Assembly (NCBI RefSeq): GCF_028641065.1
Contig: NC_073400.1
Coordinates: 32,054,001 to 32,118,000 of the forward strand
Origin: Leucoraja erinacea
Taxonomy: Eukaryota
DNA length: 64,000 bases
Direction: 5' to 3'
Shown: one piece after another, positions 27,293 through 60,994 of the stretch
Position numbering within the stretch: the first letter of the stretch is position 1
Layout of the letters: each line of letters starts with the position of its first letter
The notes under the pieces: generated by a model
What the model was told of the DNA's origin: nothing
Database searches by the model: none
Seen by the model: the letters and a program-made list of their open reading frames with translations, nothing else
Position numbers and translations under genes: made by a program

Positions 27293-27307
27293 TGATGTCT
27301 TATGATT

Positions 27308-34696: not shown

Positions 34697-34879
34697 CATA
34701 CCCTAGCTAAAATGTGGTATAAACCATAAAATAACAATTAAAAATACTGAATACTACTTTGTTAGGTGTGGAGGACTGATGAAAATTAGGTGAATGCAAA
34801 ACACGCCCAATATGAATAATTTCACAGCCTTAACCCTGAAAATTAACCTGAGAAATAGAAATCTACAAACCAAACTATT

Positions 34880-36699: not shown

Positions 36700-36965
36700 A
36701 TAAAGAGCAATAGCTTATGAAAAATAGGAATATACAGCACAGACCGCCTCTTGGGCCCAGATCATCTAAATTGTTTTATTTCCATCATAAAACAAATTTA
36801 GTGGCAATGTTGTACAGAAGTTTTAACTTCAGGGAGAGTTTAAATTGTTAATAAATAGAGAACATATACTTGGCTTGAATACTGGTATTGATTTTGCTGT
36901 CAACTGCATAAATATTATACTGAAGAATTTGCTTTAATATTTATTTTGAAATATTTCAATTTCAG

Positions 36966-37170
36966 GCAGTAATTTCAAACTTGGCTGTTATTTTACAAAC
37001 TGGGCACAGTATAGAACTGGGATTGGTCATTACATGCCTGAGAACATTGATCCTTTTCTGTGCACCCATCTGATATATGCTTTTGCCAAAATCGGTACAG
37101 ATCTCAAAATTGCTACTTTCGAATGGAATGATGAAACTCTTTACAAGACATTTAATGATATTAAACTGAG
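36966..37170 (+). CDS. Chitinase unit 2 exon 3
   Basis: [21 protein letters not shown]; 205 bp. Confidence 0.95.
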
Positions 37171-38991
37171 GTGGGTAAACATGCTTTCCACACTAAAAGT
37201 TGAAATTCATGTTTTTTCCCCATATGGACTTTTTCTTCTGTACTGCCATAGTCCCTCTAAAATCCCTAATCGTGTTTTCTAGGTAGGAAGGAAAGTGCTG
37301 TTTAATATAGAACAAGTTATCAACTTTTCTGACATTCCAGTACTCTCATTTATGTAGGAATTTGAAGAGTTGCCCAAAAATGACCTTGAGCAGTATCTCT
37401 CTACTGTTAATTTGCAAAAGTACAGATACAATTAAAAAATATATTTTGGGATGGTATGTGGCATTATGGCTTATTTGCACCTTTAAAAAAGTTAAATGTC
37501 ATTATTTCGATATCCAGGCATGTCACCCTTATATTTAATGGTGTGCACTGGCACCTTTCTGTCTACAAAAATAAGCACTGATAATAATCTTTGGGAAATT
37601 GGAAGTACAGGTACATCAGTAAATCTGCTAATGACTTTTTAAATTAGCTTTTTAGTAATATTTTTGCTAATTGAGTAGATCTGCATGATGCATTTCAGTT
37701 TTTAGTAGATTAATCTAGAGGTGAACTGTCAAACTTGGAATTGAAATTAATTCACGAGAAACTAACAATGGGTTTGAGTTATTCAAAAGGTCTGCAAATA
37801 TATTGTTTGTTTTCATGTGCTGTTGGGATGAAAGAGGAGGGAGGCAGAGACTTGTTGGTGCTCATTTTTATTCGATACAGCATGGAAACTGGCCCTTCGG
37901 CCCACCAAGCCAACCAACGATCACCGATTCGCACTAGTTGTATGTTATCCCTCTGCCTACCAACGAGAGGTAATTTACAGTCCAATTAACTTACAAACAT
38001 CCTCTTCTTTGGGATGTAGGAGGAAACTCACTCGGTCACAGGTAGAATGTGTAAACTCCACACAGTCAGCACCCAAGGTTAAGATCAAACCCGGATTTCT
38101 GGCACTGTGAGTCAGCAGCTCTACCAACTGCACGACCCATTTTCTACATGCCATGTCCACAACCAAAATGGTGGTTGGTTGATTCCACAATGACCAATTA
38201 CATGTCACTTGAGGCACCAATAAATATCTAAACAAACCAGTCCCATCTACACAACCGGATAATTGTGCTGATGCAATCAATTCCAGCTTCTTAGGAATGA
38301 TATCCAGTTGGGAAATAATGGAAGTAAAAGAGCAAGGACAACTCTCTTGCCCCTTGGCTTTGAACTAGTTCCATAAAACTACCCGAAGCTGCTGTTTCAG
38401 ACCTCAAAATATATAATAGAAATAATTGAATATAGATTTGATAGACAACACCACTGTCGTGGGTTGGGCATATCATGAACAATTGTCAATTATATACCAA
38501 AGCTATTGTATCATTTTTAACCATGGAAACCGTCTTTAACGCCAAGTTATCTAAATTTAGTTCTGTTGTTAAAGTGGCACCAAAAATGATTTTATTGCTT
38601 GAAGGAATGCCGAGTTAAAGACACTACTGGCAGTTGGAGCAGCGGCGGTTCCTGGAGCAGTGTAAGTACGCATTCATACATATTAACAAAATGTGTAAAT
38701 GTAACAGATGTCAAGTATTCACAATATTTTCCTGTAAAAGATGTAAGATGTACGTGACTAGAGAGGACAAAATCACTGACGTAGCTAGCTCGATCGGAGG
38801 ACTAGAGGTCCCGATAGCCTTAAAAGCAGGAGTCCATTAATGTTTGCGGAATGGCTAATTCTATTTTTTTTCTGACTTCCTTCTCCAGAGCATGTGCTGC
38901 AAACTAATCTTTTCTCTCTTCCACATAACTCTCCCCAACTATTGTTGAGCTTGGGGTTCTGAAGCACTTGTGAATGTGAATACTTAGCGTT

Positions 38992-39022
<31 letters not shown>

Positions 39023-42000
39023 GCGATAGAAAAACGGTTGAACATAAAGAGCTGAAATCGGAAGCAATTACTTTTTCGATCAATTCCTTCAATCATCCCT
39101 GCCCATGAGCCTTTAGCACCCAAGAATGCAAGCAAAGGATTTTCTTGCCAAATCGTACCACCTCCCTCAGTCCTTTTACTCTTTCAAGATGTTACTTAAC
39201 ATTCTATTGAGGCAAATCTTTTTGATTCAGTTTTGCAAAGTATGATATTAGAGCAGGTTATTATCAAATGAGCAAAAAGTAATAAAAAGTAACTATAAGC
39301 AGCACCTGGAACTATTTTAGGTAGTCTACCTGCTTCATCCATGACATTATTTAATCCCTTCTGAAGTACTGGAGGAGGGATGGATGTAATTAAAGTCGAG
39401 GCCACTGAATCCGTTATTGATTTCCCATATCCATTCTTTGAATAAGCCAGGTATCAGCACAGATCTAGCATTAAATTTAGAATCTTTCCAATTTGTAATT
39501 TTCGCATCATGTTATTTAATAAGCGAGACTGGGAGCTAACTTTACAAGTACGGTTAATATCAATAATTTCTTAAGACCATCCAGTTGAGAACGAGGTAAT
39601 TTAAAGGTAGATGTTGCTTATTTAACCAACATTTATATCTCAAAAGGTTTGTATAAATCCACAATTTGAGGGTTTTTTTACAGAAAATATATAATTTTAT
39701 TTAATGACATGTATTTTTAAATCAAACATGTCACCAACGTAAATTTGTTTACATTGTAAATGTCAATTAAATAACACAACGAATTCTTATAATTTCCTTC
39801 TGCTTTGGGTTCCCCCTCAGCTTCAATAACTTGGTGTCTACTCAGGCAAAAAGACAAATATTCATCAATTCTGCAACTGTTTTTTTGAGGAAGTACGGGT
39901 TTGACGGTCTTGATCTGGATTGGGAGTTTCCAGGTAGAGAAGGAAATCCACCAGAAAATAAACAACTTTTCACAGCCTTGATAACGGTAAATAAAACAGT
40001 ATTCAGATTTAACTATGTTAAATGGGCAGTGGTGCTTGGTAATTGATAGCGAGTGCCATTTTTTATTTTAATTTGAAGGTGATGGCTTTGAGGCCAAGTT
40101 TAAGGATGATACGAAGGGAGGTCGTGGGGAAGCTAGTGTAGAGGAAGCAGGGAGTCTGCAGTAGGTCTTGGACAAATTGATAAGTGGGCAAATAAGTGGT
40201 AGATGGAATACAGAGTAGCAAGATGTCCACTTTGGTAATAAGAATAAAGGCATCGAATATTTTCTAAATGGGGGGAGGGTTCGGAAATCAGAGATGCAAA
40301 GGGACTTGGGATTAAAGATGGTCCGAGGGTCTCCAATGAGATCGACGGTGGGTCAGGATTGCTATCTATTTAGTGATAGGATGGTTCAGCTGCTTGATAA
40401 CAGCTGGGAAGAAACTGACCCTGAATCTAGAGGTATGAGCTTTCGTATTTCTGTACATCTTGCGTGATGGAAGAGGGGAGAAGAGGGAGTGTCCTGGGTA
40501 AGGTTTGTCCTTGATTATGTTGGCGGTCTTGCCGAGGCAGCTGGAGTCAATAGTAGGGAGGTTGATTTTCATGATTTTCTCGGCTGCGTCCAAAATTCTC
40601 TAATTGCTTACGGTCTCAGATGAACCTGTTTGAACCATGTTGTTATGCATCCCGATTAAATGTTTCCTACGACACATCTGTAGAGGTTGGTGGGAGTTTT
40701 TGGTGACATGCCAAGCTTCCTAAACCTTCTAAAGAAGTAGAGGCATTTGTGTGCCTTTTTGATAGCTTCAATATGGCTAGTCCAGGAAACGTTGTTGGTG
40801 ATATTTACTCCTCAGAACTTGACATTTTCAATCATCTGTACTTTGGTGCTGTCAATGTATGAAGTTGATCACAATCTCCTTTGTCTTGCTCACATTGATG
40901 GAAAGGTTGTTGTCTTGACATCGGGTTATGAGGTTAGACGCAACACTCAGCATTGACAAGGTATTCACATGTTTTAGGAGTAGAATTAGGCCATTCAGCC
41001 CATCGAGTCTACTCCATCATTCAATTATGACTGATCTCTGCCTCCTAATCCCCTTTTTCTACCTTTACAACATCTACAACCTCCCCTCTGTCTGTCCTTC
41101 TATTAACTTCCTCAAAGAACTCCAGCAGAGTCGTCAGGCAAGATCTTCCCTTCATAAAACAATTTGTCATTTATGTTCTGCACAATTCTGTGGTGCAAAG
41201 GTGAACGGTTGGTGTTATAATTACATTGTTCCATCAAATTTATAGAGTTTCATTATCAAACTAAATTTCCGCTGAACAGTTTAAGGAGATTCTAGAAAGA
41301 TAGGTCGAAGTTTAAGCAAATCACTGAGCATTAATGGGGAATCATGGGAGGAATTGCTGTTGAAAGCAGGAAGGATTCAGGAAGACAAAACTAGAAGTGG
41401 GTCTTCCTATTGTTTAACAATAAGAAATTTCTGATTTACCTGCTGCCTGTCTGACCGGCATTCTAACAATATAAAGGTGCTGGAGGGTCAATAATGTTGA
41501 TGATGACTGTCATCAACTGATGCTATGATTTCAGATGATGTTTCATGGGGGCAGCGGTGGATGAAATGTAGGACAGAACAAGGTATAGTCTCTGTGGCTA
41601 GTGAGTTTGCAAACCTATATTATTTGTAAGTATAACAAATAATTGTTTTAATAAAATAATTATTTTGGTGGCGTTTAAAACGTCTGACCTTAGCTCCAAA
41701 CTTAACGTGGACTGCATGGTGATACAAGATTAACCCACATAGATTTGATTGAATTGAGATCCATCAAAAGCGTAGGAGAATTTCCAACATTTCCACCTGT
41801 GTCCAATACTTTGCATCAGGTTTTAACTCTGGCTTTCTCAGGACGCGTGATGTAAGAAGATTGTAATTTCTAAACATTAAATGTTCTTCCACTGGTTTCA
41901 GAAGAGCTATGTTAAATGCTGTTGCTTTTTTTTTTGTTTTTTTTTTGTTTTTGGAAATGGGTATGTCTTGGAAAAAGGGATAGTTATAATTTTGCAGTTA

Positions 42001-45000
42001 CAGTTACAGAATTGTAGTTATCTCACCTGTCATCCCGATAAACGTCTGCTCCGATCAAGGATTATAATATCCATTTAGTTATTTGTACCCCCAGGAAATG
42101 AAAGCTGCTTTTGCAAATGAAGCAGGAAGATCAGGGAAACCTAGATTAATGATTACAGTTGCTGTGGCTGCTGCTAGACGGTGGATCGATGCTAGTTATG
42201 AGGTGGATAAAATTTCTGAGTAAGTATAATTTTTAAGTTCAGATATTTTTATGTTGTAAAATTCTTTCTGTAATTTTAAGACAAGACAGTGAAACAAAAC
42301 TGGGTATGTGAGAATAATTAGTTGGTGAATAGTTGATGATTAGGCACCTTTGATCACTTTGCTGATGATCAAGATTAAGTTGAAGTGATAAATGCCTATG
42401 CCTATGTTAATGCCTATTAGGTTCTGTGTGCTGAAGCAAAGCAAAAATTTCATTGTCCTATCAGGGACACATGACAATAAACTTGAACTTGAACTAAGTA
42501 GGAAGATAAGATTTATTCTGTTTTTGGTAGACCACATTTTGGGCACTTTTTGACTGCTGGAACAGCTGCTCTTGTAGCTCGCACTGTTGTTGTAGCTCGC
42601 TGTTCTCAGTGTGACAGGTGGAATCTTGTGAGGACAAGGTCTTTGTTGTATCTAATGAACTCAAACCTTTATTAATGTCATGTAGAATATAAGTAGAATG
42701 GAGGGTGCATCAGAGATTACCACGGTAAGTCATTCTTTTGGCAATTCTGGCATAAACACCAACTATTACATTCTCATGTTGGACTCTTCCATTACTGTTG
42801 AGCAGATTGTGGAGCCATTTTGTTGTTTTGTTTGAGTCGAGTGGTTTTGTAGACCATTTCAGAAGAATCCACTTTACTCAAAGTCATATGTAGGGCACAC
42901 CAGGTCAGTATGGACAGTTTTTTTTCCTTCTCTGGCAGTTGTGAACCATTTGCATGTTTACAATAAATGGTTGGTCTCATGGTTAACATTACTGATGATA
43001 AATTTATAATCCAGATTTAGGTAATTAATTGAATTGAAATTCCATAACCTTGCATGATTTGAATATGTGCCACCAGTTCATGAGCCCGGGACTCGTCTAA
43101 TATGGAACTGAAATTATTATTGATGATTGTATACCTTTTGGAATCTAATTTACTGCCATGAGCAAATGTCATCTTATTTCCTTAAACAGTAACTGGGTTT
43201 CAACAACAAAGATAATTTATTCAAACTGATATGTGTACAAATTACGCATTATTCTATATAGATGAGTGTTTATTTATCGGCTACATAATTCCGTGTTAAT
43301 TATCATTTTTAAAATTTCCACTTCTTTAGACATCTGGACTTTATGAGTGTGATGTGTTATGATTTCGCTGGTGGCTGGAACACTTTCACTGCACACCATA
43401 GCCCGTTGTTTGTTGGAAGCAAAGATCGTTGGGACTTTCTCTACTACAATGCAGTATGTTTGCAAATCACTACTTCGTCTGTAGATGGCAGTAGCTCTCT
43501 CACATTCTAATTTTGTGATTTTTTTTAACCACTTTTACAATAGCTTGAAAATGTGCTTATTTTTTCTTGAACTCACTTGCAGTATGAAACAGTGACCTAC
43601 TATCTAAACAAAGGTGCACCCCGAGATAAGTTGCTAGTTGGAATTGCAACTTATGGACGAAGCTTTAAACTTGCTTCCACAAGTAATAATCAGCTTGGGG
43701 CTGCGACAGCTGGTGGTGCACCGGCAGCCCCAATAACAAAAACAACAGGCTTCATGGCATATTATGAGGTGATTAAACGTGTACATTTTTAGTCAAGCCA
43801 GTTTACATCAAATAAAATTGGTAATTAGACAGAAATTTAACCTGGGTATAAGTGCATGGCCAAACTTGTGATGCATGCTTCCACTTTCACAGTGACCTAT
43901 AAAGTTGGAAGATAATTCATCTACAAATAGGCTTATGAGATGACAATTTCCCTATAATTAAAAAGTGACTATTCTGAACATGGCGGCAGATCTGTCGCAT
44001 TCTAATTATGTGATTTTTGAACTACTTTTATAATAGGTTGAAAATGGGCTTAATTTTCCTTGAACTCATTTGCAGAATGAAACCATTAACTATTATCTAA
44101 ACCCAGGTGCACCCCGAGATAAGCTGCTGGTTGGAATCACAACTTATGGACAAAGCTTTAAATCTTCCTCTGGTAGTATTGCAAACTCAAACCAAGTTGG
44201 ACCCTTTGACTAATTTGTTTAACTGACTGTGTCCCCCTCCAAATCGCATAAAGGCTTGCCACATTCATCGATCTGCTCTGTCTCTTCCTCCAATCACCAT
44301 TGAAGATCCAGTAATCTCCAACTGTGATAGATAATTGTAGGACCCTATAAGCTCCTTATTGCCACTGATTCCTGGTCATCAAACCTCACACCAACCCCTC
44401 ACCACCCCACATGCCTAATCCACAATCCTGTTCTCCCAGCTCACTGCCCTCTGGCCTTTCTTCCCCTCGACCCAGCCATTCAAGACCAGGAATAGCAGTT
44501 AGATTATGTGCGATCAACATTGGAGTACACAATGGAAAGGATATGGTGCACTCCTAAAAAAACATAAAGTAAATCCACAACCACTGGTCAGTATGGGGCT
44601 GCTGGGCCAAATTGTCTGTTTCCATGCTGAATGATTCTAAACAATCTCTAATTTTGAGCTTGTTGAAGATCTTTAGATCATGTATAGCCACAGATGAGGT
44701 CCCAGAAGACTGGAGAGTTGCTTTTGCTGAAGCTGTTGGAGAGGATTCTTTGGGATAGAATCTGCTTGTATTTAGAACGGAGTAAAATTATTAGAGAGAG
44801 TTGGCATTTTATAAACCTTTATAACGTCATTCCTGAATCTCCTAAGCTCAGGTAAAATAGGCAGCGTGTCCTGCCTCTCTTTATAACTCAAACCCTCCAG
44901 ATCTGGTAATACCCTCGTAAGTCTTTTTTCGTACCCTTTAGTGACATCCTTCCTATACCAGGGCGACCAAAACTGTAATGACATGAAGTTTAACCAAGTA

Positions 45001-48000
45001 AACAAGAAAACCATTCTGAAATTTAGGGTATACTAGACCAAGTGCAGACCCGTTGGGTCTGTTCCCCCCAACGTGCGGTTGGGGGGGGGGGGGGGGGCGG
45101 CACGCAGCGCCACACACACTAACTATCCCCCCCCCCCCCGCACTCACGCTAATTACCCCCTTGATATTATATTAATATTATTAATTTGCTCCTTTTACCC
45201 CATAACCACCCTATCTACTGACGCATAGCCCCCAACTTGCAGTCACATCTAGAGAGGGGGGAGGGGCGGGCGGGGGTAGAGAGTGAGGGCAGAGAGAGAC
45301 AGAGACAGAGACACAGAGAGAGGGGCAAGGGGGATAGGGGGTGGAGAGGAGGATAAGAGGGAGGGTGGGTGAGGTGGGGGAGGAGAGAGTGAGGGGGAGA
45401 GAGGGGTGCTGAGAGGGGGGTGAGGTGGGGAGCAGGGAGGGGGGAGGGAAGAGGGTAGGGGGTGTGGAGGGGAGGGGGTTGAGGGTGGGGTGGGGAGAGG
45501 AGAGGGGGGGGAGAGAGGGGGTGTGCTGAGAGGGGAGGGGGAGAGAGGTGGGAAGCAGGGAGGGGGAGGGAGGGTGGAGGGAAGGGGGTAGGGGTGTGCG
45601 GAGGGGAGGAATGGTGGGGGAGGGGATGGAGGGGAGAGGGAGAGGGGTGGGGGGGAGAGGGGTGGGGGAGGAGAGGAGAGAGGGGAGAGAGGAGAGGGGG
45701 TGAGAGGAAAGCGGGGGGGGGGGGGGGGGTTGAAGAGGAAAGGGGGGGAGAATCTAAAAAAGATTTTAGACCCAAAAAAGACACATTCTGCAAGCATTGT
45801 AGAACCAAAAGAGACACATTTTGCAAACATTTTAGAACCAATAAACACTTTTTGCAAACATTTTAGAACCAATAGACACATTCTGCAAGCGTTTTCGAAC
45901 CACTAAGGACACTTACATTTGAGTAGACATGTGTTCAGTGTTATTCACAGCTCAGAGATACGTGACCATCTGCCTTCCTCCAGCTTGCAGACACTGATTG
46001 AGGCACACCACTTCCTGGTTTTATAGTCCCTTCCCCCTGCTGCCAGCAGGGGCAGCAGAGAGAATGGGGAATTTTGTAAAATCATTAATATCTCTGTCAT
46101 TTTTCATCGACGGGATAAATTCTCGGCACACATACGGCGGAGGGGGGCTCTGAGCAAGGTGGCCAAAATGACGGCCGTAGGTGGCGGCGTTCTCTCGGAA
46201 ATCGCAGCACAGATGGCCAAAACCGGTCAAGAACAGACTTTTAGTAATATAGATGAGATTTAAATTGCATGAATGCTTCCTCCTATAGATGTACTCCTCT
46301 GCCTGGCTGGGCTTCATATTGTGACTATTTTTGATCATTACACCCCACATGCAACATTATCAGGAAAATATAATGTCACTCGTCTCTTCAATGAATAAAT
46401 CAGTGGCTCTAACTATACATTCCATATTAATCCATTGACAAAAGTGTAATCTTTAGGACATCTTGAGTAACTTCGGAGGGATCGGCTTGTATCTAACAAT
46501 GCACCATCTTTCTCCTCAACAGATATGTGATCTTTTGGAAGGAGGAGAAAGACGTTGGATTGAAGATCAGAAGGTTCCATATGCAGTCAAGGGAGATGTA
46601 TGGGTGGGCTATGATGACAAGGACAGTGTTATTTCCAAAGTAATTTACTATGAAACTTTTTATATGATATTTGTGTTATTACAAAAAATATTTTTAATTT
46701 ATCAATCATTCAGGTATTCATTACTTTAAAAAATACTCTGAATAGTACTGACAAGATGTTAGTTTCCTTGGTAGGCAAGTGACAATGCGTTGCCTGCTGT
46801 AGGCAAAGATGATCCAGAGCAGAGAGTCTAAAATTGAATTCCTGTATGTTGTAACTTCTTCTAAGGCAGCCCTCAGGATCAAAGCCAATCTGCAACCACT
46901 CTGTCTCTGACTGATGAGGCCCCTGGGAATTGCAGACTCTTCCTCAGATGGGGCAGTAGGAGCCTGATTGGGTGGGTGAATACTTTATAGCAACATATAA
47001 ACGGAAACAGACAATTTGTTCCAACTCATCCAGGCCAACCAAGAAGCCCCATCTAACCTAATTCAATTTTTCCACATTTTCCTATCCACGTAGCTGTCCA
47101 ATTATCTTTAAAACTTTGTTTAAGGACCTGCCTAACCTACCTCTTCTGGCAGCTCGTTCAATATACCCATCACCCACTAAGTGAAAAGGTTGCCACTCAG
47201 GTTCCTATTAAATCCTTCCCCTTTCAGATTAAACCTGTTCTTGATTCTCCTATCCTGGGTAAAAGACTGTTCATTCTATCTATTCCCCTCATGATTATAT
47301 GCAACCCTTAGCCTCAAGTGTTCCAAGGAATAAAGTCCCAGCTTGCCCAATTTCTCCCGAGAGTTCAGGCCCTCTAGTCCTGGCAGCATCTTCATAAATT
47401 TTCTCTGCACTTTCCACTTAATGACATCCTTCCTATAGCAAGGTGAACAAAACTGAACACAATACTCCAAATGCTTCAATGTCCTGTATAACTAAAACAT
47501 ACCTTCCCAACTTCTGTACTTAATACACTGACAGATGAAGGCCAATGTACTCAAAGCTTTCTTAACACACTGTCTACCTGCGATGCCACTTTGAGAGTAC
47601 TACATGCCTGTACTATATCCCTCTGCTTCACAACACTCAGCAGGGCCTTAACATCCAGTGCGATACTGCCCTGATGTGACTTCAACCATTGAAGTCCTGT
47701 AAAGCAGGAGGATTTTGATGTGTATCACAGCCTTTTACACTAGGCTTGTGGGTTGGTCTTTCGTATACTCCCAATGCTTTGACGATATTCTGGTGCTAAC
47801 CCAAATGCTTTGTTGGGATACATTGTGTAAAACTATCAAGAAAGGGTTTCGGCCCAAAACGTTGCCTATTTCCTTCGCTCCATAGATGCTGCCTCACCCG
47901 CTGAGTATTTTTGTCTACCTCAGATAAAGAGATTAACATCTTTGATGCAGGCACTTGCGGACATCACTTTGTAGGTACACCTACAAGTCATTGACTTTTC

Positions 48001-49776
48001 TGACATGGGTGTTTTTGGTTTTAATCCTGAAATTCCATATCTAAAGATACAGGTTAGAGATACTGCGTGATAACCTTTGGCCCACCAAGTACACACCAAC
48101 TAGTACACTAGTTCCATGTTATCCCACTTTTGCATCCTACACACTGGCAATATACAGAAGCTAATTAACCTACAAACCTGCACGTATTGTTAATGTGGGA
48201 GGAAACTGGAGCACCCAGAGAAATCCCATGGGGTCATAGGGAGAATGTACAAACTCCGCAGTGACAGTCCCTGTAGTCAGGATCGAACCTAGGTTGTTCA
48301 TAGGAATGCTTCTGGTGATTTCACGTTAAAGGAACTGGAGTTGTGCAATGAGTCCTGCAATACCAGGGGGACTTTGATTTTTATCATGACCAATAAAAAT
48401 CAAAGTCCCCCTGGTATTGCAGGACTCATTGCACAACTCCAGTATGATTTTTATTAGCGATGAGGTATTTTCAGAGCCACAGATCTCTCGTCTTCTCTCG
48501 CATCTCTCGTTGCGTCTGGAAGGATCCATTCAAAATATTAAGCAAATTTGACCACATGATTAAACTTGTGAACTATCGAACTGGTTCTATAGAATCTAAC
48601 TGTTAAGTTTATCTTTGTAGATTGAGTGGGTGAGGCAGCAAAAGTTTGCAGGAGCTTTCGTGTGGACAATTGATTTTGATGATGTAAAAAACCATTGTAA
48701 ACAAGGTTCACATCCTCTGGTACAAACGATCAGGAGGGAGTTTTTAGGCATTTCAGGTGAGTATATAATTTTAGCATTTGCGCTTTTTTCAATTATGATT
48801 ATAAGAACAAAGACAGAGGTTATTGGACAAATGGGCTGACCAACTGCTTTGTACAACTTTAACATAAAGTCCCAACATCTATACTTAATACACTGACTGA
48901 TTAAGGCCTACGTAGCAAAAGCCTTCTTTACCTCCCTATCTACCTGTGATGCTACTTTCAGGAACTTTGGACCTTGGATTTTTTTGGTTTACAATTGTTG
49001 GCCCGGGCCATACCATTCATTATGAAGGTCCTACCCAGGTTTGACTTCCCAAAATGCAACACCTTGCGCTTATCTGCATTAAACTCCATTATTCATTCCT
49101 CAGACCACTTAACCAGCTGATTAAGAGCCTGCAGTAATTTTTAATTACTATCTACGATACTACCCAGATTAGCAATTTTTTTAATCGTACCTTGACATTC
49201 TCAGGATGTTGCCAGGACTTGAGGGCTAAACTATAGGGAGAGGTTGAACAGGTTAGGACCACGGGAGGATCTTTGGATCACAGGAGGCTGAGGGGTGACC
49301 TTAGTTTAGTTTAGAGATACAGCTTAGGAACAGGCAGTTCTGTCCACCAAGTCCACGCTGACCAGCGATCACCCATACACTAGTTCTATCGTACACATTG
49401 CAGGACTCATTGCACAACTCCAGACGATTTATAGAGGCCAATTAATCTACGAACTTGTGTGACTGGAATGTGGGAAGAAACCGGAGAACTTGCAGAAAAG
49501 CCACGTGGTCAATTGCTCCTAGTTAGCAGTTAGAATAATTTGATTTTTTTAATAATCTGAGTTTGTAGTAAGATAACATTATTTTTTTGATTGTAAAATA
49601 GTGCTATTTGTTGTCAAACTAATCTGATTTTTCTTTGTAAAGCGGACGGCCTACCTGAAGGAAAACTGAATAGTACGAATCTTATGGGCTCTGTGTTGGG
49701 GATTTCATTTAAAGTGCATATATTACTCGTTGGACTGTTGGTGAACAAAATCGCAAACTTAATGCTGCAGAGATAA
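36966..49776 (+). CDS. CHIA-like: GH18 chitinase unit 2: intact exons 3-11, no exon 1/2, hydrophobic C-terminal tail, no CBM14
   Basis: Exons 36966-37170, 38605-38661, 39821-39986, 42095-42219, 43330-43453, 43583-43768, 46523-46639, 48621-48756, 49643-49776; all GT-AG, continuous frame, [12 protein letters not shown]. Confidence 0.92.
38605..38661 (+). CDS. Chitinase unit 2 exon 4
   Basis: [18 protein letters not shown]; 57 bp. Confidence 0.9.
39821..39986 (+). CDS. Chitinase unit 2 exon 5 (DGLDLDWE)
   Basis: 166 bp, AG/GT. Confidence 0.95.
42095..42219 (+). CDS. Chitinase unit 2 exon 6
   Basis: [27 protein letters not shown]; 125 bp. Confidence 0.93.
43330..43453 (+). CDS. Chitinase unit 2 exon 7
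   Basis: [26 protein letters not shown]; 124 bp. Confidence 0.93.
43583..43768 (+). CDS. Chitinase unit 2 exon 8
   Basis: [22 protein letters not shown]; 186 bp. Confidence 0.93.
44076..44213 (+). pseudogene. Truncated duplicate of chitinase exon 8 (pseudo-exon)
   Basis: catttgcag|[32 protein letters not shown]; upstream intron also duplicated from ~43980. Confidence 0.8.
45033..46253 (-). mobile_element. Non-autonomous Helitron
   Basis: Minus strand 5' TC, 3' hairpin CAGACCC-AAC-GGGTCTG then CTAG, between A and T, no TSD; empty site in unit 1 ~29300; internal G-tract and ~31-bp repeats 45760-45915. Confidence 0.85.
46523..46639 (+). CDS. Chitinase unit 2 exon 9
   Basis: [23 protein letters not shown]; 117 bp. 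Confidence 0.94.
48334..48443. repeat. Perfect inverted repeat, 51-bp arms, 8-nt loop
   Basis: 48334-48384 is the reverse complement of 48393-48443. Confidence 0.92.
48621..48756 (+). CDS. Chitinase unit 2 exon 10
   Basis: [21 protein letters not shown]; 136 bp. Confidence 0.94.
49643..49776 (+). CDS. Chitinase unit 2 terminal exon, hydrophobic tail
   Basis: tttttctttgtaaag| phase 1; [44 protein letters not shown]. Confidence 0.7.
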
Positions 49777-52456
49777 ATCAGAAAAAGTGACATGGCCTAG
49801 TTAAAACTTTGGTATAACCTATAAAAAATACTAAATACTACTTTATTAAGTTCTAAGGACTAAAAATTAGGAGAATGCAAAACAAGCCCAATGTGAATAA
49901 TTTAAATTATATTTAAGTTTCAGATTCATCGAGTCAAACAGGATGGAACTCGGCTTTTCGGCCCATCTGCCCATGCGACCTGGATGCCCTATCCAAGGAA
50001 GTACTATTTGTCTGTGCCTCGCCTACATCCATCCAAATCTTTGCTATCCATGTACCTGTCCAATAATAGACACAAAAAGATGGATTAACTCAGCAGGTCA
50101 GACAGCATCTCTGGAGAAAAGGAATAGGTGATGTTTTGGATCTCGCCCCGAAACATCAGCTATTTCTTTTCTCCAGAGATGCTATGTGACCCGCTGAGTT
50201 ACTCCAGCTTTTTGTATCAATCTTCAGTATAAACCAGCATCTGCAGTTCCTTCCTACCTGTCCAATGAGAATTCCATAAACCTACCACCCTTTGTGTGAA
50301 AAATTAGCCCCTCAGGTTCCTATTGAATCGTTCTCTCAAGCCTATGCCCTTTAATTCTTGATTCACCTACTTGGGAAAAAGATTCACCCGATCTAGTCCA
50401 CTCATGATTGTGTACACCTCTATAAGATCACCAACAGTCTTCTGATAACAATCTTCACTGTCTAAGATACCACCTATTTTGATGCCATCTGCAAACTTAG
50501 TAATCATGCCTTGAACATTTCCATCCAAACCTTGAAATATAAAATAAAGACCATATAGAATATGCCTACCGCTCTGCCCTCATCAACCTATGTGATTAAT
50601 TCTTCAAAGATCTCTACTAATTTTGTGAAATATGATCTCCCACACACAAAACTATGCAAACTATCCCAAATCAATCCCTGTTTTTCCAAGTGCATGTATA
50701 TATTAATACTCGGAATCTTCTCCAGTAACTTTGCTACCAGATGATAGGCTAATCAAGGTTTTTCATTGTAGCTTTTTCTAAATAGAGGCACAACATGAGT
50801 CACTCTGCAGTCTTCTGACACCTCACCTACGTCTATGATGATAGATATCTCAGCTTGCACTCTATCTTCCCAGTGCCATTGGATATACCTGATCAGGCCC
50901 AGGAAAATGATCTGCCTTCATACGCCTTTGCTTGTCGTCCACCTCCACACTGTGATATGGACTGATCACAAGACATCCCATTATTTTTCCCAAGTTCTCT
51001 TGTCTTCATGTCTTCCTCTGTGGTTAAAACATACAAGAAATGTTCATTGAGGACATCGCCCATCCCCTGCGGCTCTACACGTAGATGATCACTTTGTTTG
51101 CTGGGAGGCCTTATTCTCACCCTGTCTACCATTTTCCCTTATACTTATGTAATCTATTTCCTTTCTCAATCTTATGTGTCAGAGGTTTTGCATGCCACCT
51201 TTTGCCTTTCTTAAATGTACTCTTCAATTCCCTATGCCTCTTTAAGGATAGACTTGATGCCAGCTGTCTATACCTGAGCTATGCCTCCTTTTTCCTGAAC
51301 AGTTTATCTCGTCATTGAGGCTTTCATACTCTTAACTGCCTTGCGCTTCGAGAGCATGCATACTTAGAACTCTTACTATAACACCTAAAACCATCCCACT
51401 TTTTAAAAGTGCCTTTGCTCACAAGCAACTTATTCCAATTGTCTTTTGCAAGTTCTTGTCCAATATCAACCACATTGGCTTTGCCCCAATTTCGAAGTTC
51501 AGCTTGTGGACTCGCCCTATCCTTCATGAACACAATTGAGGAGAAAGTTTGTTGATTGGCTTTTTCATTAAACTAACCAAAGGGTAATTTGAATAGTATT
51601 ACTGAGAACCACAGTACAAATGTATTTGGAAATTTCCACCTTACTGAACATTATCCTATTTGAAAAATTCTTAAATCAGCTAGCATTTAGAAAATTCATA
51701 TTCTCTGTAACAAATATATTAGATAAATGTGCTCTTAATAACCTCCATTTTCCAATTGACAATTGCTCCTGAAGTCACTTATTCCAAGCTACATCCTTAG
51801 GAATTCTAACCTTGTTCAGCCATGAAGTCCAAACACCGGGGACATAGGTTTAAGGTTAAAGGGGAAAGATTTAATAGCAGTCTAAGGGGCAACTTTTCCC
51901 ACCGACATGGTGGTGCATATATGGAACTAACTGTCAGAGGATATAGATGAGGCAGGGACTTTAAAAACATGTAAAATACATTTGGTCAGGTACATGGAGG
52001 GGAGAGGTTTAGAGGGATAGGGGCCAAACATGGGCAGGTGACAATAAACAATAGGTGCCAGAGTAGGAGATTCGGCCCTTCGAGCCACCACCACCATTCA
52101 CTGTGATCATGGTTGATCATGACTAGTGTGGTTGGTCAGCATGGGCAAATTGGTTCAAAGGGCCCGTTTCCGTGCTGTATGAGCCTTTGACAAACTTAAG
52201 CCAAAATGTACTTTTAAATATATATTGGCAGGATTTTTCATGTAATAACTTCAATGTTTTATTATTCATTGATGCTGTGTTTTTAAAAAACAATTGTGGG
52301 TAATTATATTATACTGCCTTGATAAGGAAATGTTCTCCATTTTACATAACTTATATTTTGTAGTCTGGTACGTTATTTTAAAAAAATATTCTGTTCAAAT
52401 GCATTATATTCCAATCAATTTAATAAACTTATCCTTTTTGTACTCACAGATTGTTT

Positions 52457-52798
52457 TTTTTTGTTGTTTATTTTATTAGAAGTTAATACAGTACAAAACA
52501 GTACAGTGGAACCTAATTTTAGGTGCCAACTATGTCATACCGTAATCCATTCTATGTATAACCTCTAGTTTTATGTTATGAAAAGGAAGTAAGCAAGACA
52601 AGAAAAAGAAAACAATAGAAAGAGGAAAAAGTGGAAAAATAGATGGTAGATAGTAGAAAAACGTGAAGTGTGTATATAAAAAATTAAAAAATAAACAAAA
52701 AGTAGAAATAGAAGAGAAGGCCCCTTAAAAGAGAATTTTTCAAATCTGTATTTGGAGATGTAGATCTATCCACGTCATGAACGGAAATCAGCAATCTT
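52457..52798 (-). mobile_element. 5'-truncated polyA retroelement 3' end (L1/Tx1-like), 16-bp TSD
   Basis: TACTCACAGATTGTTT at 52441-52456 and 52799-52814; A-tail and AATAAA on minus; empty paralogous site ~35850. Confidence 0.8.
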
Positions 52799-55189
52799 TA
52801 CTCACAGATTGTTTAACGAGTGTGGTATCAGGTTGGACATAATTATCGGTTTCATAGAAAGAATAATGCAAAATAAAGCATATAGCACAGAAGAAAGGCC
52901 TCTTTGGCCCAGCTCATCTATCTAACTAAAAAGCATTTCCCCGCATTAAGCCAATAGACAATAGACAATAGGTGCAGGAGTAGGCCATTTGGCCCTTCGA
53001 GCCAGCACCTTCAATGTGATCATGGCTGATCATCCCCAATCAGTATCCCGTTCCTGCCTTCTCCCCATATCCCCTAACTGCCTCCGCCGCCCTCTGAGGC
53101 AGAGAATTCCAGTCTACAATCCCACAATCCTCATTATATCTGTTCCAAATGCTTTTTAAACATTTTAATTATATCTGAACCCATCCAACCCCTGGCAGCT
53201 TTTCACTACCTTCTGGGCAAAAAAAACTGACCTCTCAGTCCTTTAAATTCCTCCTGTAGACGGCCTTACACTGGAGATAAAATTCCAACTACCCCAATGA
53301 TGTCCCTCATCATATAAACCTAAGTGAAGTCACCCCAACCTAAGTGAGGTTCCAGTAAGAATATACACAGCCTTTCTAATCTCTCCTTGTAACTACAGAA
53401 TTATTATTAAGAGTTCTATACAATGAGCACCCACAGTAAGCCTCGTGGGCAGCACAGTAGAGTTGCTGCCTTACAGCGCGTGCAGCTCCAGAGCCCCGGC
53501 TTCGATACCGACTACGGCTGTCTACAGAGTTTGGACGTTCTCCCATGCGTGGGTTTTATCATATACAATTTCCTCCAACACTCCAAAGACATACGGGTTT
53601 ATAGGTTAATTGGCTTGGGCTTCTCCCAGAGCGGGGCCAAGAAAATTGAAGATGGACACAAAATGCAGGTGTAACTCAGCAGGACCGGCAGCATCTCTGG
53701 AGAGAAGCAATGGGTGACATTTCAAGTCAAGACCCTTTTCAGACTGAAGAAGAGTCTCGACACGAAACATCACCCATTGCTTCTCTACATTTTCAAATGA
53801 CGTCACGCGCTCCAGACGGCTGTGCGTATGCATAAATCTCGCGCGACCGTCGCGGCTCAACGAGGCCGCGTAATTTGCGTGCCAAGGACACATAAGTGGG
53901 ACAGGCCCTTTACTTTTCCACATACCACTCGTAAGTCTGGAGATTTGTTTAATGATAACTAGCTTCAGAAGCGTTTTCTTTTTGCATGTAAAAACCCACT
54001 TCAGAACCATAGGCGATTTAAAAAATTTACACTTCTGAGACTTTTTAGATACCAAAGGAATCAAGAAAAAACACAAATAATGCCATACTGTTGATGAAAT
54101 GCAGTGAGCAAACGCGACAATTCCCAATATTTTCAATTTCGATATCTGCACGGCCAATGTTCGCCAAGCTGTTGTTTTCCCTTCAGCTCTCGCTTCTCTT
54201 TACCTTCATTTCGTTTCACCTTTGGAATTCTGAAGTTGGGTACATGTCTCTCACGTTTACCCCGACTTCCACAATTCTTCACAGCGCAAAAAATTCACCA
54301 TTTTGGCGATTTTTAGCAGGTAGGAAAGTACGCGTTTTGTGTGTTAATAACATACCAGAAGCTGCGATGTCCTCCAGATGGATTGAGCGGCTCTGTGCGT
54401 CAAACCCTATGACCCGGTGACCTTACGTGCAACCCCCCTATACTGAAGAAAACTCTAGTTATGATATGGTTGCACCCAAATCTGCTAAAGCTGACTTCTG
54501 ACATGTTTTGGGTAATGTTTGATCAATTGTGATCCAAGGAAGGTGACTGGAGAAGGTACACATCCTTTCCCTACCCTTGAGGGTAGCAGAACGTCTAGTA
54601 TTACTACTACAAACTAAGGACGGGACAGATGAGACCAGGACAAGTCAAATGTGTTACACTGCAACTGAAACGGAACTAATACTTTGCAAAGGAACAATGT
54701 GATGATTTTGGAGAGAGTTTAGAGCAGCTTGGCAGTGTGAGTAAGAATCCGAGAGGAGAATCCGTTGGGATAGACTGGAAACATAGTACGCGAATAATAG
54801 GCAATGGAACCAAAAGCAACCAGGAACTGGGGCAGAGCATGGAACCCCATTAAAATGCTCAATTTAAAGACTGCATATAAATGCTCACTGCATCTGCACC
54901 GTTAGATGGAGACGCAAAGAATTGCAAATGCTGGAATCTCAGCAAAACAAAAAGTGCTGGAGGAACTCAGCGGGTCAGGCAGAATCAGTGGTGGGAATGT
55001 TCAGATGTTTGGGGTTGGGACCAAAGATACTAGAGGAGCTCCTCGAGTATCTTTGGTTGGGACTCTTCTTCAGACTTATTTAATCTGTTTACGTCACTGC
55101 GGTTTTATTATTGGTATATTATAACTGCCGAAGATACAAGTGGGTGGTTTTTTTTTTGAGATAGTGAAAAGATGTTTGTGTAAAAAGGC

Positions 55190-55380
55190 GGTTGTAGACC
55201 AGTTGACGACGACGACGACGACGACGCCGCTTCTTCCCGGCCGCCGCTGCGCATGCGCGGCACAGGGTGTGTGCGCGTCCCGCCGGCTCTGCGCACGCGC
55301 CGGGTTTTGGCGGGAGCGGTGGATGTCCGCCGGCCGTCGAGGAGGAGAGGCGCGAGCGGCCGGTGCCCGCTGAGGAAACA
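55190..55380. promoter_or_regulatory. Duplicated CpG-island fragment (NRF1-type motif) directly upstream of chitinase unit 3
   Basis: Near-identical to 9441-9545 and 9752-9838; TGCGCATGCGCG 55248-55259. Confidence 0.7.
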
Positions 55381-55422
55381 GCGAATATAATAATAATAAC
55401 ACTGCATCAAAACGCTGGAACA

Positions 55423-58400
55423 ATGTTTGGCCTCTTTGGTAAGAATGTTTTTTTGAAAATAACTAAAAGTAAGCGTTGAACAAATGACACATACATTATC
55501 TTCGGTGTAAACCAGCAGCTGCAGTTCCTTCCCTCCCACACATACAATTACATGCTGCTGCAGAGTGTGAACTTTTGGTGGCGTTCTTAGCTCCACCAAA
55601 CGTTCAGTGACAAAGTAAATGGACAAACGAAGGCAACACAACGAATATTTAGTTTATTTGTATAGATAAGACTTTGCCTTCCATCATTCACAGTGAGGAG
55701 GAGATTCACTGTGACTGTGATGGATGTTTGTGTAAATTGTGTTGTGTATTGGTTCTTTTTCTTGTGTGTATGACTGCAGAAACCAAATGACACAAATAAA
55801 TTGCATTGTAGAAGTGTCTATACTGCTATACATATTAGATCCATAGATTAAAGCTCCAGTTTTGTGAGTGAAATGCAACTGGAACCTTAGTTATCCTTCT
55901 GAGAGTCCCCATGGCCACAGTCAGGTTCAGTGGAGACAAGTAGTGGATATGTAATGCCTGTAGTTTTTTAATGTTTAGTTTGGAACGTAGATATTATTAG
56001 CAAGCGTGATATTTGTTGCCCGTTGTGTTACCCTAAGAAGGGAAGGTCATAGATGGTTTTGGTCAAGATGAAAAGCTGTCCCTTTCAGGTCAAATTTCCT
56101 GAATACTGCAAAGAGACTTCAAATGTTTATTATGGAGGGATATGGGTTATGTGCAGGCAAATAAGTGATGGTCTTGGCATCATGTTCGGCAGAGACATTG
56201 AAGGCCGATCAGCCTGTTCATTATGTTTATCTACTGTGCTTATTTAAAAGAGACAATTAAAACTCTCATCAGAGGAGAAGATTTCCCTCATTCCAGCCAT
56301 TCCTGGAAGAGAAGTTGCAGTAAATTACATGGAATTAAAAAATAAACCCCAAAGAACTCCAGAGTGTGGAAATATTAAACAGTAACTGCTGAAGATGCTC
56401 ACCAGGTCATGGAATATCTTTGATAAAAGAAACATTTAACATTTCAGATCCCTGACCTTCACTCAGAACTTGTCCAGTTTTTCCCCATGTGCAAAAAAAA
56501 AATCAAGTCTTGTCTTGTTGAAAGTGATAGGCTGTTGATTACATTGTGGATTGGTAAAATCAACATAACATATTTTCTGCTTATTTTTCTCCTTTGTTCT
56601 TTTAGGACTCGTCATTTTATCTCAATTGCAACTTGGTGAGTCACAATATTGCTCGCAAATGCAAAACAGTGCTTCATACCTCAACGTTCTTTTTTCTTAG
56701 AATGTAAATGGTTAAACAATAAACTCAGAATCTGCATATTGGACAGGTATTTAAATATTTATGGGAACATTTTAAAACAGTACGCATTGTTTAAATAATT
56801 TTAGTAATCGTCAAAAAATAAGTGGTTATGTTGAACAGAAGAGATCTTATGTAAAATTTTAATCGTTGTAGAGAAAACACAGGTTAAATACTGATTGATT
56901 TTGCTGTCAACTGCATAAATATTGTACTACATTTATTTTTTAATATTTCCATTTTAGGCAGTAATTTCAAACTTGTCTGTTATTTCACAAATTGGGCACA
57001 GTATAGAACTGGGATTGGTCGTTACATGCCTGAGGAGATTGACCCTTTTCTGTGCACCCATCTGGTGTATGCTTTTGTCAAAATGGATACAAATCATAAA
57101 GTTATGAAAGTCGAATGGAATGATGAATCGTTGTACAAAATATTTAATGATCTGAAACTGAAGTGAGTAAACATGCATTCCTTATAGTTATTTTCCAAAA
57201 TAAAAGTTGCAACTCGTGTCTTTTTCCCATATCAAACATTATCTTCTGTACTTCTATTGTTCCTCTTAAATTCCTTATGTTTTCAAAGTAGGGGTAAAAG
57301 TGCTGTTTAATATAGAACACGTTTTTAATGTTTCTGACTTTCCTGAATGGGAAGTCATTTATGCAAGAATTTGTAGAGTTACCCAAAAATCATCTTGAGC
57401 AGTATCTCTACGCTGTAATTTGAAAAAGTAGACAATAGGTGCAAGAGTAGGCCATTCGTCCCTTTGAGCCAATACCACCATTCAATGTGATCATGGCTGA
57501 TCATCCCCAATCAGTACCCCGTCCCTGTCTTCTACTTATATCCCCTGACTCTGCTATCTTTAAGAACCCTATCTAGCTCTCTCTTGAATAGAGAGAAAAC
57601 TAGATAGGGCTCTTAAAGATAGCGGAGTCAGGGGATATATCTTGAAAGTATCCAGAGAACTGCCCTCCGAGGCAGAGAATTCCACAGACTCACAACTCTC
57701 TGTGAGAAAAAGTGTTTCCATTTGTGAGAACAAGTAATAATCAGATAAAATAATAATCAGTGCTTTCTTTTGGGATGGTATAAAAACATAGAAAATAGGT
57801 GCAGGAGTAGACCATTCAGCCCTTCATGCCAGCACCGCCGTTCAATATGACGTGTTGGGGAAACGGGTGAGTGGTGGAATATTGCGTTGGACGACCAGGC
57901 ATCTCGTGTGACGGACCGAACAGGTCTAGTCTCTCTCTCGCTGTCTCTGGCTCTCTCGCACTCTCTCTCTCGCTGGCTACATCTGTCTAAGTCTGTCTCT
58001 GTGTCTAAGTCTGTCTCTGTGTCTAAGTCTGTCTCTGTGTCTAAGTCTGTCTCTGTGTCTAAGTCTGTCTCTGTGTCTAAGTCTGTCTCTGTGTCTAAGT
58101 CTGTCTCTGTGTCTAAGTCTGTCTCTGTGTCTAAGTCTGTCTCTGTGTCTAAGTCTGTCTCTGTGTCTAAGTCTGTCTCTGTGTCTAAGTCTGTCTCTGT
58201 GTCTAAGTCTGTCTCTGTGTCTAAGTCTGTCTCTGTCTACGTCTGGCTCTATCTCTCTATCTCTCTCTGGCTTTATGTCTCTGTCTGTCTCAGCGATACA
58301 AGTAAGATTTTAAAACAGCATTTTACTGCTACTCTGGGCCCGTGGGGATGTGGCGCTGGGGCTCGGGTTGGGGCTGCGGGGATGGGAAGAGACCGGTTGG

Positions 58401-60994
58401 GGAGAGGCAGTGCCGATCGGAGGCCTGGGCGCTGAGCCTAGCTCTGAGACCGACGGCGCAGCTGGCTCTGGGCACGCATGGACGGAAAGGAGCGACACCC
58501 TCGAGACCTGTGGAGGTGAGGAGGGAGTGTGTGGAGAGAATTGAGGGAGAGGAGTGGGTAGGGAGGGACAGGGGGGAAAGTAGGGGAGGTGAGGAGGTAG
58601 AGTGGGGGAGGAAGGGGAATAGAAGGAGAGGAGTGAGGGAGTTAGGGAGTGGGAAATACCTGGGGAGGTGACGAGGGAGCGAGCGGGGGGATTGAGGGAG
58701 AGGAGGGGTTAGGGAGGAAGTGAGGGGGGAGGGGGGGAATAGAGGGTGAGGGAATGGAGGGTAGTGAGGAGGGATAGTGGAGGAGGATAGGCGGAGGTGA
58801 GGAGAGGGGGGATAAGGAGTTATGGAGAAAGGGAGAGAGTGACCGAGGGTAGGGGAAAGGAGAGGGAGGGATTGGGGAGGGGAAAGAAGAGGGGGAGGGA
58901 GCGCTGGGGATGAGGGAAAATTAGCTGCGCCTGCGCAGTTGGGGGGGGGGCTATGCGTGAGTGGTGGAATCCGTATGACAGGGACCCAACAGGTCTAACT
59001 TAATCTAGTATTGATTAAAGGTGTGCACTGGTACCTTTCTACCAAATAGGGGCTGGTAATAATTTCTGGGAATGATAGTAAATCTATTAATTACTTTTTA
59101 ATTTATCTACTAATATTGCTAATTAGGGAAGTAGATTTGCATGATACAATTTCAGTTTTGAATTCAGAGGTAAACTTTCAATCTGGGAATTGAAAAGAAT
59201 TCAAGATAAACCAATAATGGGTTTGAGTAATTCTCAAGATCTGCAAAGATACTGGTTGTTTTCATGTGCTGTTGGGATAAAAGAGACTTGAGGCACATTT
59301 TGGGTTGGCAGAGACCTGGGGCTCATTTTGATTATGGGTACAGCATGGAAACAGGCCCTTCAGCCCACTAAGCCAACCATGGATCACCCATTCACACAAG
59401 TTCTATGTTATCCCACTCCCTACTTATTAGGGGCCATTTACAGAGTCCGAATAACCTACAAACTCACATGTCTTTGGGATGTGGGAGGAAACTGGAGTAT
59501 CTGGAGGAAACCCACTCAGGGAGAACATGCAAAACACACACAAACACACTTGAATATAGAATAGAATAGAATAGTTTCTTTATTGTCATTGTAACATGAG
59601 CCATGTACAATAAAATTTAAAAATGTCAGCCAGTCAGTGCACCATTCAAACATTTCTAAAAGCTAACGATACATACAAGGTAAAATATTAAAAGATAAAC
59701 AACTAAATAAATATCACGAAAATAGCACGCATAAACACCCAACCCTATATATTGAAAATTATTTTATTGCTTGAAGGAATACCAAGTTGAAGACACTGCT
59801 GGCAATAGGAGGGGCAACTTTTGGTTCTACACTGTAAGTATGCATTCATGCACATTAACAAACTATATAAATGTAACAGATGTCAAGTATTCATAATATT
59901 TTTCTGTAAAAGATTTTAAATATATACCACTAGAGAGGTCAAAATCATTGAAGTAGCTCGGTCAGAGGACTGGAGGTCCCATTTATGTTTGCGGCAGACT
60001 TTTATTTTTATTATTTTTTTTTTTTACTATTATTTTTTTTCTAACTTTCTATCCCAGTGCATGTGTTGCAAACTAACCGTTTCTCTCTTCTACCCAACTC
60101 TCCCCAACCCAATTACTGTTGAGCTCGGGTTTAAAGCACTTTGAATGTGAATACTTAGGGTTTGGGTGGGGAAGGAAGGGGGAGTCGATGTGAAACGGGT
60201 CGTACATAAAGTTGTGAAATCGGAATCAAATAGGATCCATTTTTTCAATCATCCCTCCCCATGTCTCAGTTTTACAAAGCATTATATGAGAGCAGGTTAT
60301 TATCAAATTATAACAAAGTAATAATAGTAAGCTGCAGCCGGGACTATTTTATCCAGCTTCATCCATGATCTTATTTAATTCCTTCTGAAATACTTGAGGA
60401 GAGGGTGGATGCAATTAAAGTGGTGGCAACTGAATCCATCACTGATCTCCCTTTTTCATACATTGTCTGAATGAAGCAGGTATCTGAACAGATCTAGTGC
60501 TAAATTTAGAATCAAATTTACAGTTTTCGTATAATGCCATTTAATAAGGGAGACCGAGAGCTAACCACAATTATGCTTAATGACAGCTTATAGTATTAAT
60601 CAATTTAAAAGTAGTTGTTTCTTATTTACCTAGCATTTATATTTCAAAAAGTATGTATTAAACCACAGTCTGCATTTTTGTCTGGAAAATATGTAATTTT
60701 ATCTAATTACATGTATTTTTCAATCAAATATGTCACCAACATAAGTTTGTTTACATTCTTACAAATGTCAATTAAATAATTTGACCAATTCTTATTATTT
60801 CCTTCTCCCGCTCTGGGTTCTCCCTCAGCTTTAATAGCATGGTGTCTACTCTGGCAAATAGACAAGGATTTATCAATTCTGTGATTAGTTTTGTGAGGAA
60901 GTACCAGTTTGATGGTTTTGATCTGGATTGGGAATATCCAGGTTCCGCTGGAAATCCAACAGAAAATAAACAGCGTTTCACAGCATTGGTAAAG
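55423..60994 (+). CDS. CHIA-like: GH18 chitinase unit 3, exons 1-5; continues beyond window
   Basis: Exons 55423-55438, 56606-56635, 56958-57162, 59777-59833, 60829-60994; [56 protein letters not shown]. Confidence 0.92.
56606..56635 (+). CDS. Chitinase unit 3 exon 2
   Basis: [11 protein letters not shown]; 30 bp. Confidence 0.88.
56958..57162 (+). CDS. Chitinase unit 3 exon 3
   Basis: [10 protein letters not shown]; 205 bp. Confidence 0.95.
57850..59008 (+). mobile_element. Helitron-like element, 3' part
   Basis: GGGACCCAACAGGTCT hairpin then CTAG|T at 59005-59009; G-rich interior like 45033-46253. Confidence 0.65.
57984..58235 (+). repeat. 18-bp minisatellite, 14 copies (TGTCTAAGTCTGTCTCTG)
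   Basis: Directly visible; source of the SKSVSV ORF. Confidence 0.95.
59777..59833 (+). CDS. Chitinase unit 3 exon 4
   Basis: [18 protein letters not shown]; 57 bp. Confidence 0.92.
60829..60994 (+). CDS. Chitinase unit 3 exon 5 (DGFDLDWE)
   Basis: 166 bp, AG/GT. Confidence 0.95.

Follow-up and report, generated by a model that had tools for sequence, protein, structure and literature searches.

The segment at positions 49643-49776 of the analysed Leucoraja erinacea DNA (the window, i.e. the whole stretch of 64,000 nucleotides) is best read as descending, in a lengthened and degenerating form, from the last exon of an elasmobranch-specific GH18 gene in which a GPI signal has replaced the CBM14 domain. 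The segment belongs to the second of three gene copies (unit 2), which would be headless, and the third copy (unit 3) would likely be the working one; we assign this reading a probability of about 0.55. The flagged unit 2 copy itself is a poor example of a GPI signal, with no signal-peptide exons, an atypical omega site and a weak acceptor.

Self-alignment and exon maps place three tandem GH18 genes on the plus strand of the window. Their exons and the neighbouring elements are as follows.

12422-32614, plus strand: unit 1, exons 1-10 (exon 1 12422-12437, exon 2 13482-13511, exon 10 32479-32614), signal peptide present.
25211-27307, plus strand: LINE with a reverse-transcriptase open reading frame in unit 1 exon 7, with a perfect 15-base target-site duplication.
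34533-34697, plus strand: unit 1 sequence homologous to the terminal exon of unit 2, in which 16 extra bases lead to a hydrophilic frame.
34533-34619, plus strand: mini-exon of 87 bases in the unit 1 tail, phase 1-1, created by an internal GT at 34620.
35909-36773, no strand: stretch upstream of unit 2 without a signal-peptide exon, holding a repeat-like fragment and a CATT microsatellite; its unit 3 counterpart measures ~3.9 kb and holds a CpG element and exons 1-2.
36966-46639, plus strand: unit 2, exons 3-9 (36966-37170, 38605-38661, 39821-39986, 42095-42219, 43330-43453, 43583-43768, 46523-46639), GT-AG throughout, frame open.
48621-48756, plus strand: unit 2 exon 10, with a phase-1 donor and the W358 equivalent.
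49643-49776, plus strand: unit 2 terminal coding exon, consisting of a 15-residue linker, a GPI-signal-like block and a stop.
55423-60994, plus strand: unit 3, exons 1-5 (55423-55438, 56606-56635, 56958-57162, 59777-59833, 60829-60994), the remainder lying outside the window.

In the Leucoraja erinacea RefSeq set, unit 1 is matched by XP_055511101.1 (200 aa, ending after exon 6), unit 2 by XP_055511102.1 (P0002, 431 aa) and unit 3 by XP_055510982.1 (P0036, 423 aa). The GH18 catalytic domain is identified both by Pfam (PF00704, E 1e-89) and by fold matching, and the exon phases of the units equal those of the human CHIA and CHIT1 genes. The DxDxE motif is intact together with Y212/D213 in units 2 and 3 (exon 39821-39986 in unit 2); in unit 1 of this genome the first Asp of the motif is Glu, and W71 and W99 are lost. 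The W99 position in the GGW loop is Ala in units 1, 2 and 3, the unit 2 site being located in exon 4 (38605-38661). This exon is the most diverged of unit 2 (68% vs unit 1), its GGW loop being fully rewritten while the length of 57 bases is kept. Further features of the window include a partial duplicate of exon 8 in intron 8 of unit 2 (43960-44200), which has an acceptor and terminates in a stop, and a perfect 18-base tandem repeat with 14 copies in intron 3 of unit 3 (57984-58236). A CpG-rich element with the palindrome GCGCATGCGC, an NRF1-type motif, is found upstream of units 1 (9419-9587) and 3 (55223-55372), unit 2 being without it. The 9.4-kb copy may serve a minus-strand neighbour as its promoter; on that strand, a GC-rich open reading frame with an initial Met at 8388-8522 possibly represents exon 1 of an adjacent gene, and an atlas look-up for this frame returned no useful match.

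The AG at 49641-49642 opens a frame of 44 residues that closes with the stop at 49774-49776 and is in phase with the phase-1 donor at 48756. An earlier note, made from the sequence alone, had described a phase-compatible exon following exon 10 of unit 2, with a linker, an NST sequon, a GS pair and a hydrophobic block. All of these elements are present, and the RefSeq model P0002 has exactly the 49643-49776 tail as its C-terminus. The absence of a six-Cys CBM14 exon, likewise reported there, is borne out by a profile of 34 CBM14 domains (from 34 of 37 chosen proteins), which recovered all 3 shark controls that had been held out (E<=9e-18) and gave E 0.53 at best among 3255 six-frame segments of the window. 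A hidden CBM14 exon in the window is thereby ruled out.

Judged as a GPI signal, the unit 2 tail departs from the usual layout. Its ancestral omega site lies 44 residues and the NST 34 residues from the end, the hydrophobic 12-mer scores 2.3, and a terminal Lys and Arg bring two basic residues into the last 10. Under a simple rule that uses general GPI features (a site some 17-31 residues before the C-terminus, followed by small omega+1 and omega+2 residues), only one weak omega site is found. The acceptor of 49643 is weak, scoring 2.2 on a matrix built from 21 real sites, which is below all 21 real acceptors (leave-one-out) and corresponds to rank 26 of 190. With respect to hydrophobicity, 195 open decoy exons of 20-60 codons were drawn from 576 pyrimidine-rich AG sites, and 8 of them match the tail (~4%, the tail itself being counted in the 8); the hydrophobicity alone is a roughly 1-in-25 event. 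The exon is used by none of five other skate models, and a 35-base tail pattern gave 0 matches in metagenome contigs. In a separate stretch, 51299-51364, 21 of 22 residues agree with the hydrophobic last exon of the model for Amblyraja unit 2; this stretch has a poor acceptor and scores low against the shark-tail profile described below.

Unit 1 had been thought to share the phase-compatible hydrophobic exon, which is not the case: owing to the 16 extra bases behind the acceptor at 34533, the phase-1 frame encodes 54 hydrophilic residues. The hydrophobic frame is shut by a TGA just upstream; among 8 AG sites examined, 34621 alone leads into it, giving 18 residues behind a very poor acceptor. 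Unit 1 is thus ruled out as independent support for the tail frame, since this frame cannot be spliced into. The conservative nature of the differences between the units was correctly described, the hydrophobic frame showing 0 synonymous and 5 nonsynonymous changes, all 5 conservative (p about 0.05); read in the alternative frame, the conserved block shows one stop and two radical changes. Over this block 77 of 83 bases (93%) are identical between units 1 and 2, compared to 68-88% in 7 coding exons and 75-83% in 2 intron flanks, and 86-88% identity persists beyond the stop. The five conservative changes speak mildly for the hydrophobic frame but do not prove selection on coding. Exon 7 of unit 1 is interrupted by the LINE, whose reverse transcriptase is recognised by Pfam (E 1e-24); in the Amblyraja orthologue of unit 1 (P0124) this exon is whole and free of the LINE. 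The insertion is thus recent or polymorphic, and its open reverse-transcriptase frame and perfect duplication look young.

The skate units and the CBM14-less shark and ray proteins form one clade, with support of 96/93 in a careful tree (13 of 26 rows) and 98 SH-aLRT in a quick tree (19 of 66 rows). The rows of both trees were hand-chosen with one model per gene, chondrichthyans being favoured, and the roots are midpoint roots only; orthologues were collected by single-exon searches, cluster look-ups and a search of 50% representatives. The skate proteins do not group with tetrapod CHIA or CHIT1 but fall within this separate elasmobranch clade, other shark genes, which have CBM14, grouping with CHIA. 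A single clade of stingray and skates was neither recovered nor rejected (p-AU 0.21). Among the 16 clade rows scanned with Pfam (out of 19), none has a CBM14 domain.

A homologous tail of 22-24 residues, starting at the exon-10 junction, is found in 8 of 13 non-skate rows, which represent 8 species in 6 genera (two Scyliorhinus, two Chiloscyllium, Heterodontus, Pristiophorus, Heptranchias and the stingray Hemitrygon); the C-terminal end of P0045 is NSGLQLGTSAVKVFPAVVAIIMTT. All 7 sharks pass the simple GPI rule: a small triplet lies 23-25 residues before the C-terminus, the hydrophobic 12-mer scores 2.35-2.93 and the last 10 residues are uncharged. The stingray tail resembles the shark tails. 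Signal peptides, judged by eye, are present in the shark and stingray orthologues. The claim of a CBM14-less chitinase of the GPI type is thus upheld as far as the sequences of these orthologues suggest it, its other footing, the comparison of units 1 and 2, being weak. The remaining 5 of the 13 rows end otherwise; two of them appear to continue into the intron, as some Chiloscyllium isoforms do, and such run-on ends could be secreted forms. Several RefSeq isoforms exist for Chiloscyllium, which suggests transcript support.

The catalytic motif is kept by the shark and ray proteins of the clade except for the stingray. This protein (P0172, XP_072886961.1, Hemitrygon akajei) combines a signal peptide and a GPI-like tail with E-A-Q in place of D-D-E and is a candidate membrane-anchored chitin lectin. 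W99 is kept in all 7 tail-bearing shark and stingray models in the alignment and in the second Chiloscyllium model, Ala being confined to the skate rows (4 of 4). Hence, the anchor signal would be ancestral to sharks and rays and the loss of W99 a later skate event independent of the tail, so that the proposed tie between W99 loss and tethering has to be given up. W99 loss is recurrent, being also seen in a zebra finch model, a Pogona model and a Pristiophorus protein with two CBM14 domains (P0361, P0370 and P0081). Outside the clade, the GH18 representatives P0169, P0225, P0233, P0277, P0205, P0152 and P0223 have strong GPI-like or transmembrane tails. In the teleost clade, P0337 (XP_053338529.1, Clarias gariepinus) shows a Ser/Thr linker and a GPI-like end instead of CBM14, which is perhaps of independent origin or a model error.

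Homology between the skate and the shark tail was assessed in two ways. In the first test, a local alignment with 7 shark tails, the similarity was non-significant (109 of 1000 shuffles), and the tail did not appear among the top 15 HMM matches of 3255 segments. The second test, devised after the first had failed, used the whole-profile score with one tail from each of 6 genera; the unit 2 tail ranked first of 195 decoy exons (18.5 vs 10.7), its score being equalled by 6 of 300 shuffles. On the same profile, the closed hydrophobic frame of unit 1 scored 10.8 (7 of 300), its open frame 4.3 (30 of 300) and the unit 3 tail 7.3 (14 of 300), and one of 13 unrelated hydrophobic tails outscored the unit 2 tail (19.8). 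The match begins 15 residues into the unit 2 terminal exon. This offset suggests that the linker would have been gained with an acceptor further upstream, which would have moved the old omega site to 44 residues from the end. Taken together, the homology of the skate tail with the shark tail is moderately supported at the sequence level.

Unit 2 has lost its beginning. A fuzzy search for exons 1-2, which encode the signal peptide, finds exon 2 in units 1 and 3 only; upstream of unit 2 the sequence is homologous to unit 3 up to 35908 and to unit 1 again from 36774, beyond exon 2. Among 10 candidate start exons in phase 1 that precede unit 2, none resembles a signal peptide, and the start of the RefSeq model is acidic and taken from the unit 1 tail exon. 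Without signal-peptide exons, unit 2 as sequenced should be unable to enter the ER on its own. The eight exons of unit 2 are open, have GT-AG ends and contain no stop or broken splice site, and the predicted fold is an intact GH18 barrel (pLDDT 87.5, rmsd 1.3 Å to CHIT1). Over exons 3-5, the dN/dS of the unit 2 branch is near 1.05 vs 0.37 for unit 1 and 0.32 for unit 3. When neutral decay was simulated at the unit 2 branch length, the frame and splice sites stayed intact in 2 of 3000 runs (647 of 3000 at 2% change), which rules out a long-dead pseudogene and indicates that unit 2 was under selection during most of its history. The loss of its first exons would thus be recent, compensated or an assembly error.

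Regarding expression, exon 9 and the 5' half of exon 10 of unit 2 have zero depth in 4 of 4 RNA runs (tissue not given; positions 46000-57500), with 4 of the 24 listed runs sampled, 1-25% of each read, and the right tissue possibly absent. Nearly all reads in these runs come from repeats, and the bins of unit 3 exons 2-3 contain traces only (0-0.34). The junction 48756-49643 is absent from the 15 listed of 1020 RNA joints in the four runs (tissue not given). The absent reads are weak evidence against expression of unit 2. Unit 3, whose last exon the earlier note had marked for checking, ends in the RefSeq model P0036, from which alone its last exons were read, in a hydrophobic tail unlike that of unit 2. 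As this model also has a signal peptide and an intact catalytic motif, unit 3 is the best skate candidate and, judged by its sequence, likely the working copy.

Other explanations of the segment have to be weighed against this reading. It could be 3' UTR or unspliced DNA with a chance hydrophobic frame, the skate units ending elsewhere as short secreted CBM14-less proteins like CHI3L1. The block identity above that of the compared coding exons, the lack of synonymous change and the similarity continuing past the stop look like base-level constraint or gene conversion, and the weak acceptor, the decoys of equal hydrophobicity and the different last exon taken by the Amblyraja unit-2 model point in the same direction. 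We nevertheless consider this explanation improbable: the tail ranks first against the shark/ray profile, its position and phase equal those of the shark exon, all five changes are conservative in the hydrophobic frame and not in the other, and RefSeq picked this very exon. It is very improbable that the tail is translated and serves not as a GPI signal but as an uncleaved single membrane anchor or as an ER-retained, degraded end. The missing good omega site at the usual distance, the basic residues following the hydrophobic block and a low-confidence AlphaFold helix at 414-430 of unit 2 would fit such a role; however, the best 19-residue window contains Lys and His and scores +3.2 on a biological hydrophobicity scale, which is unfavourable for a transmembrane helix, and the shark tails have no cytoplasmic segment.

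Units 1 and 2 might also form one read-through gene, in which unit 1 provides the promoter and signal peptide and unit 2 the anchor. The transcript would either encode two catalytic domains (unit 1 exon 10, mini-exon 34533-34619 and unit 2 exon 3) or join unit 1 exon 2 or 6 to the matching unit 2 exon. The losses of the two units are complementary, unit 1 having a leader without a usable anchor and unit 2 an anchor without a leader, and unit 2 is free of stops and broken splice sites despite its long branch. The two-domain path is open and in frame, the junction from 34619 to 36966 is present in P0002, and exon 7 is intact in Amblyraja unit 1. Yet the donor at 34619 is weak (4.7, with 2 of 22 real donors lower, leave-one-out), a phase match has a 1-in-3 chance, the RefSeq junction may stem from an ab initio start-codon search, the RNA mapping spanned 46000-57500 and thus lay outside the junction region, and in the Leucoraja erinacea genome the LINE blocks the two-domain form. 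We therefore regard a read-through gene as unlikely.

The shark protein would enter the ER via its signal peptide and, following the established rules of GPI cleavage and transfer, would be processed at the small-residue triplet that spans the exon 10/11 junction. The catalytic domain would then stand bare on the outer membrane, probably the apical one, and trim chitin in situ, in soluble or gel-like form or as oligomers. Because CBM14 is gone, the expected substrate would be chitin in hydrated form, or oligomers, and not the crystalline chitin of food. In skates, the gene would have been triplicated and W99 lost, with unit 1 broken and unit 2, deprived of its promoter and signal-peptide exons, giving no surface protein by itself. 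Considering the loss of the Trp99 lid, catalysis by the skate copies may be slow, or they may act as binders. Other gut enzymes are GPI-anchored, and a brush-border digestive role would be equally plausible.

Vertebrate CHIA (AMCase) and CHIT1 resemble the skate proteins in the GH18 barrel with its insertion domain (47-50% identity, rmsd 1.3-1.9 Å) and in DxDxE, Y212, D213, W31 and W358, all retained in unit 2. Unlike them, the skate/shark clade has no CBM14, carries a hydrophobic C-terminal signal and stands apart as an elasmobranch clade, and the skates are without the W99 lid. One report describes Trp99 as a lid that closes the active site and shields the reaction (PMC12502790). CHI3L1, CHI3L2 and Ym1 are close fold matches and also GH18 proteins without CBM14, and the E-A-Q of the stingray P0172 would represent a parallel catalytic loss; sharks and skate units 2 and 3, in contrast, keep the catalytic residues. 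The mammalian chitinase-like proteins are secreted and are not known to carry an anchor. Fungal GPI-anchored GH18 chitinases share the combination of GH18 and GPI signal but are of independent origin. These enzymes remodel the fungus's own chitin and have a long Ser/Thr stalk, which is missing in sharks. Insect group III chitinases have two catalytic domains (PDB titles) and would be a model, in outline, for the read-through case only. They are membrane-tethered at the N-terminus and carry a C-terminal CBM14. For salmon, CHIO chitinases have been proposed to remodel endogenous chitin of the gut mucosa; in the available text of that paper, 10 CHIA-annotated proteins have a C-terminal CBM14 and the words 'GPI' and 'shark' are absent (PMC10234404). 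Teleost rows fall outside the elasmobranch clade.

Within the literature searched, most subscription papers and supplements being outside its scope, no GPI-anchored vertebrate or elasmobranch chitinase was found; the term 'GPI-anchored chitinase' appears there in 5 papers, which their titles and the opening lines of their abstracts show to be fungal. Chitin in the ampullary gel and chitin synthase in the canal epithelium of the little skate are described in the accessible part of one study (10.1101/687301), and a blue-shark stomach chitinase is cited in the available text of another (PMC4728518); these papers tie the CBM14-less elasmobranch clade to no tissue. As a tentative and rather doubtful extension, sharks and rays may use a GPI-anchored chitinase on endogenous chitin at the surface of epithelia, for instance those of the electrosensory canals and the gut, with the enzyme retuned by lineage into a catalytically dead lectin in a stingray and a lid-less triplicate in skates. 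Its more specific form, in which read-through splicing joined units 1 and 2 of the skate into one protein with two domains and a single anchor, seems highly unlikely. Vertebrate chitinases are regarded as secreted, from which a surface form across sharks and rays would differ. The interest of the finding rests on the shark/ray clade and less on the flagged skate copy; if true, this clade would offer a candidate for shaping the chitin of the ampullae of Lorenzini.
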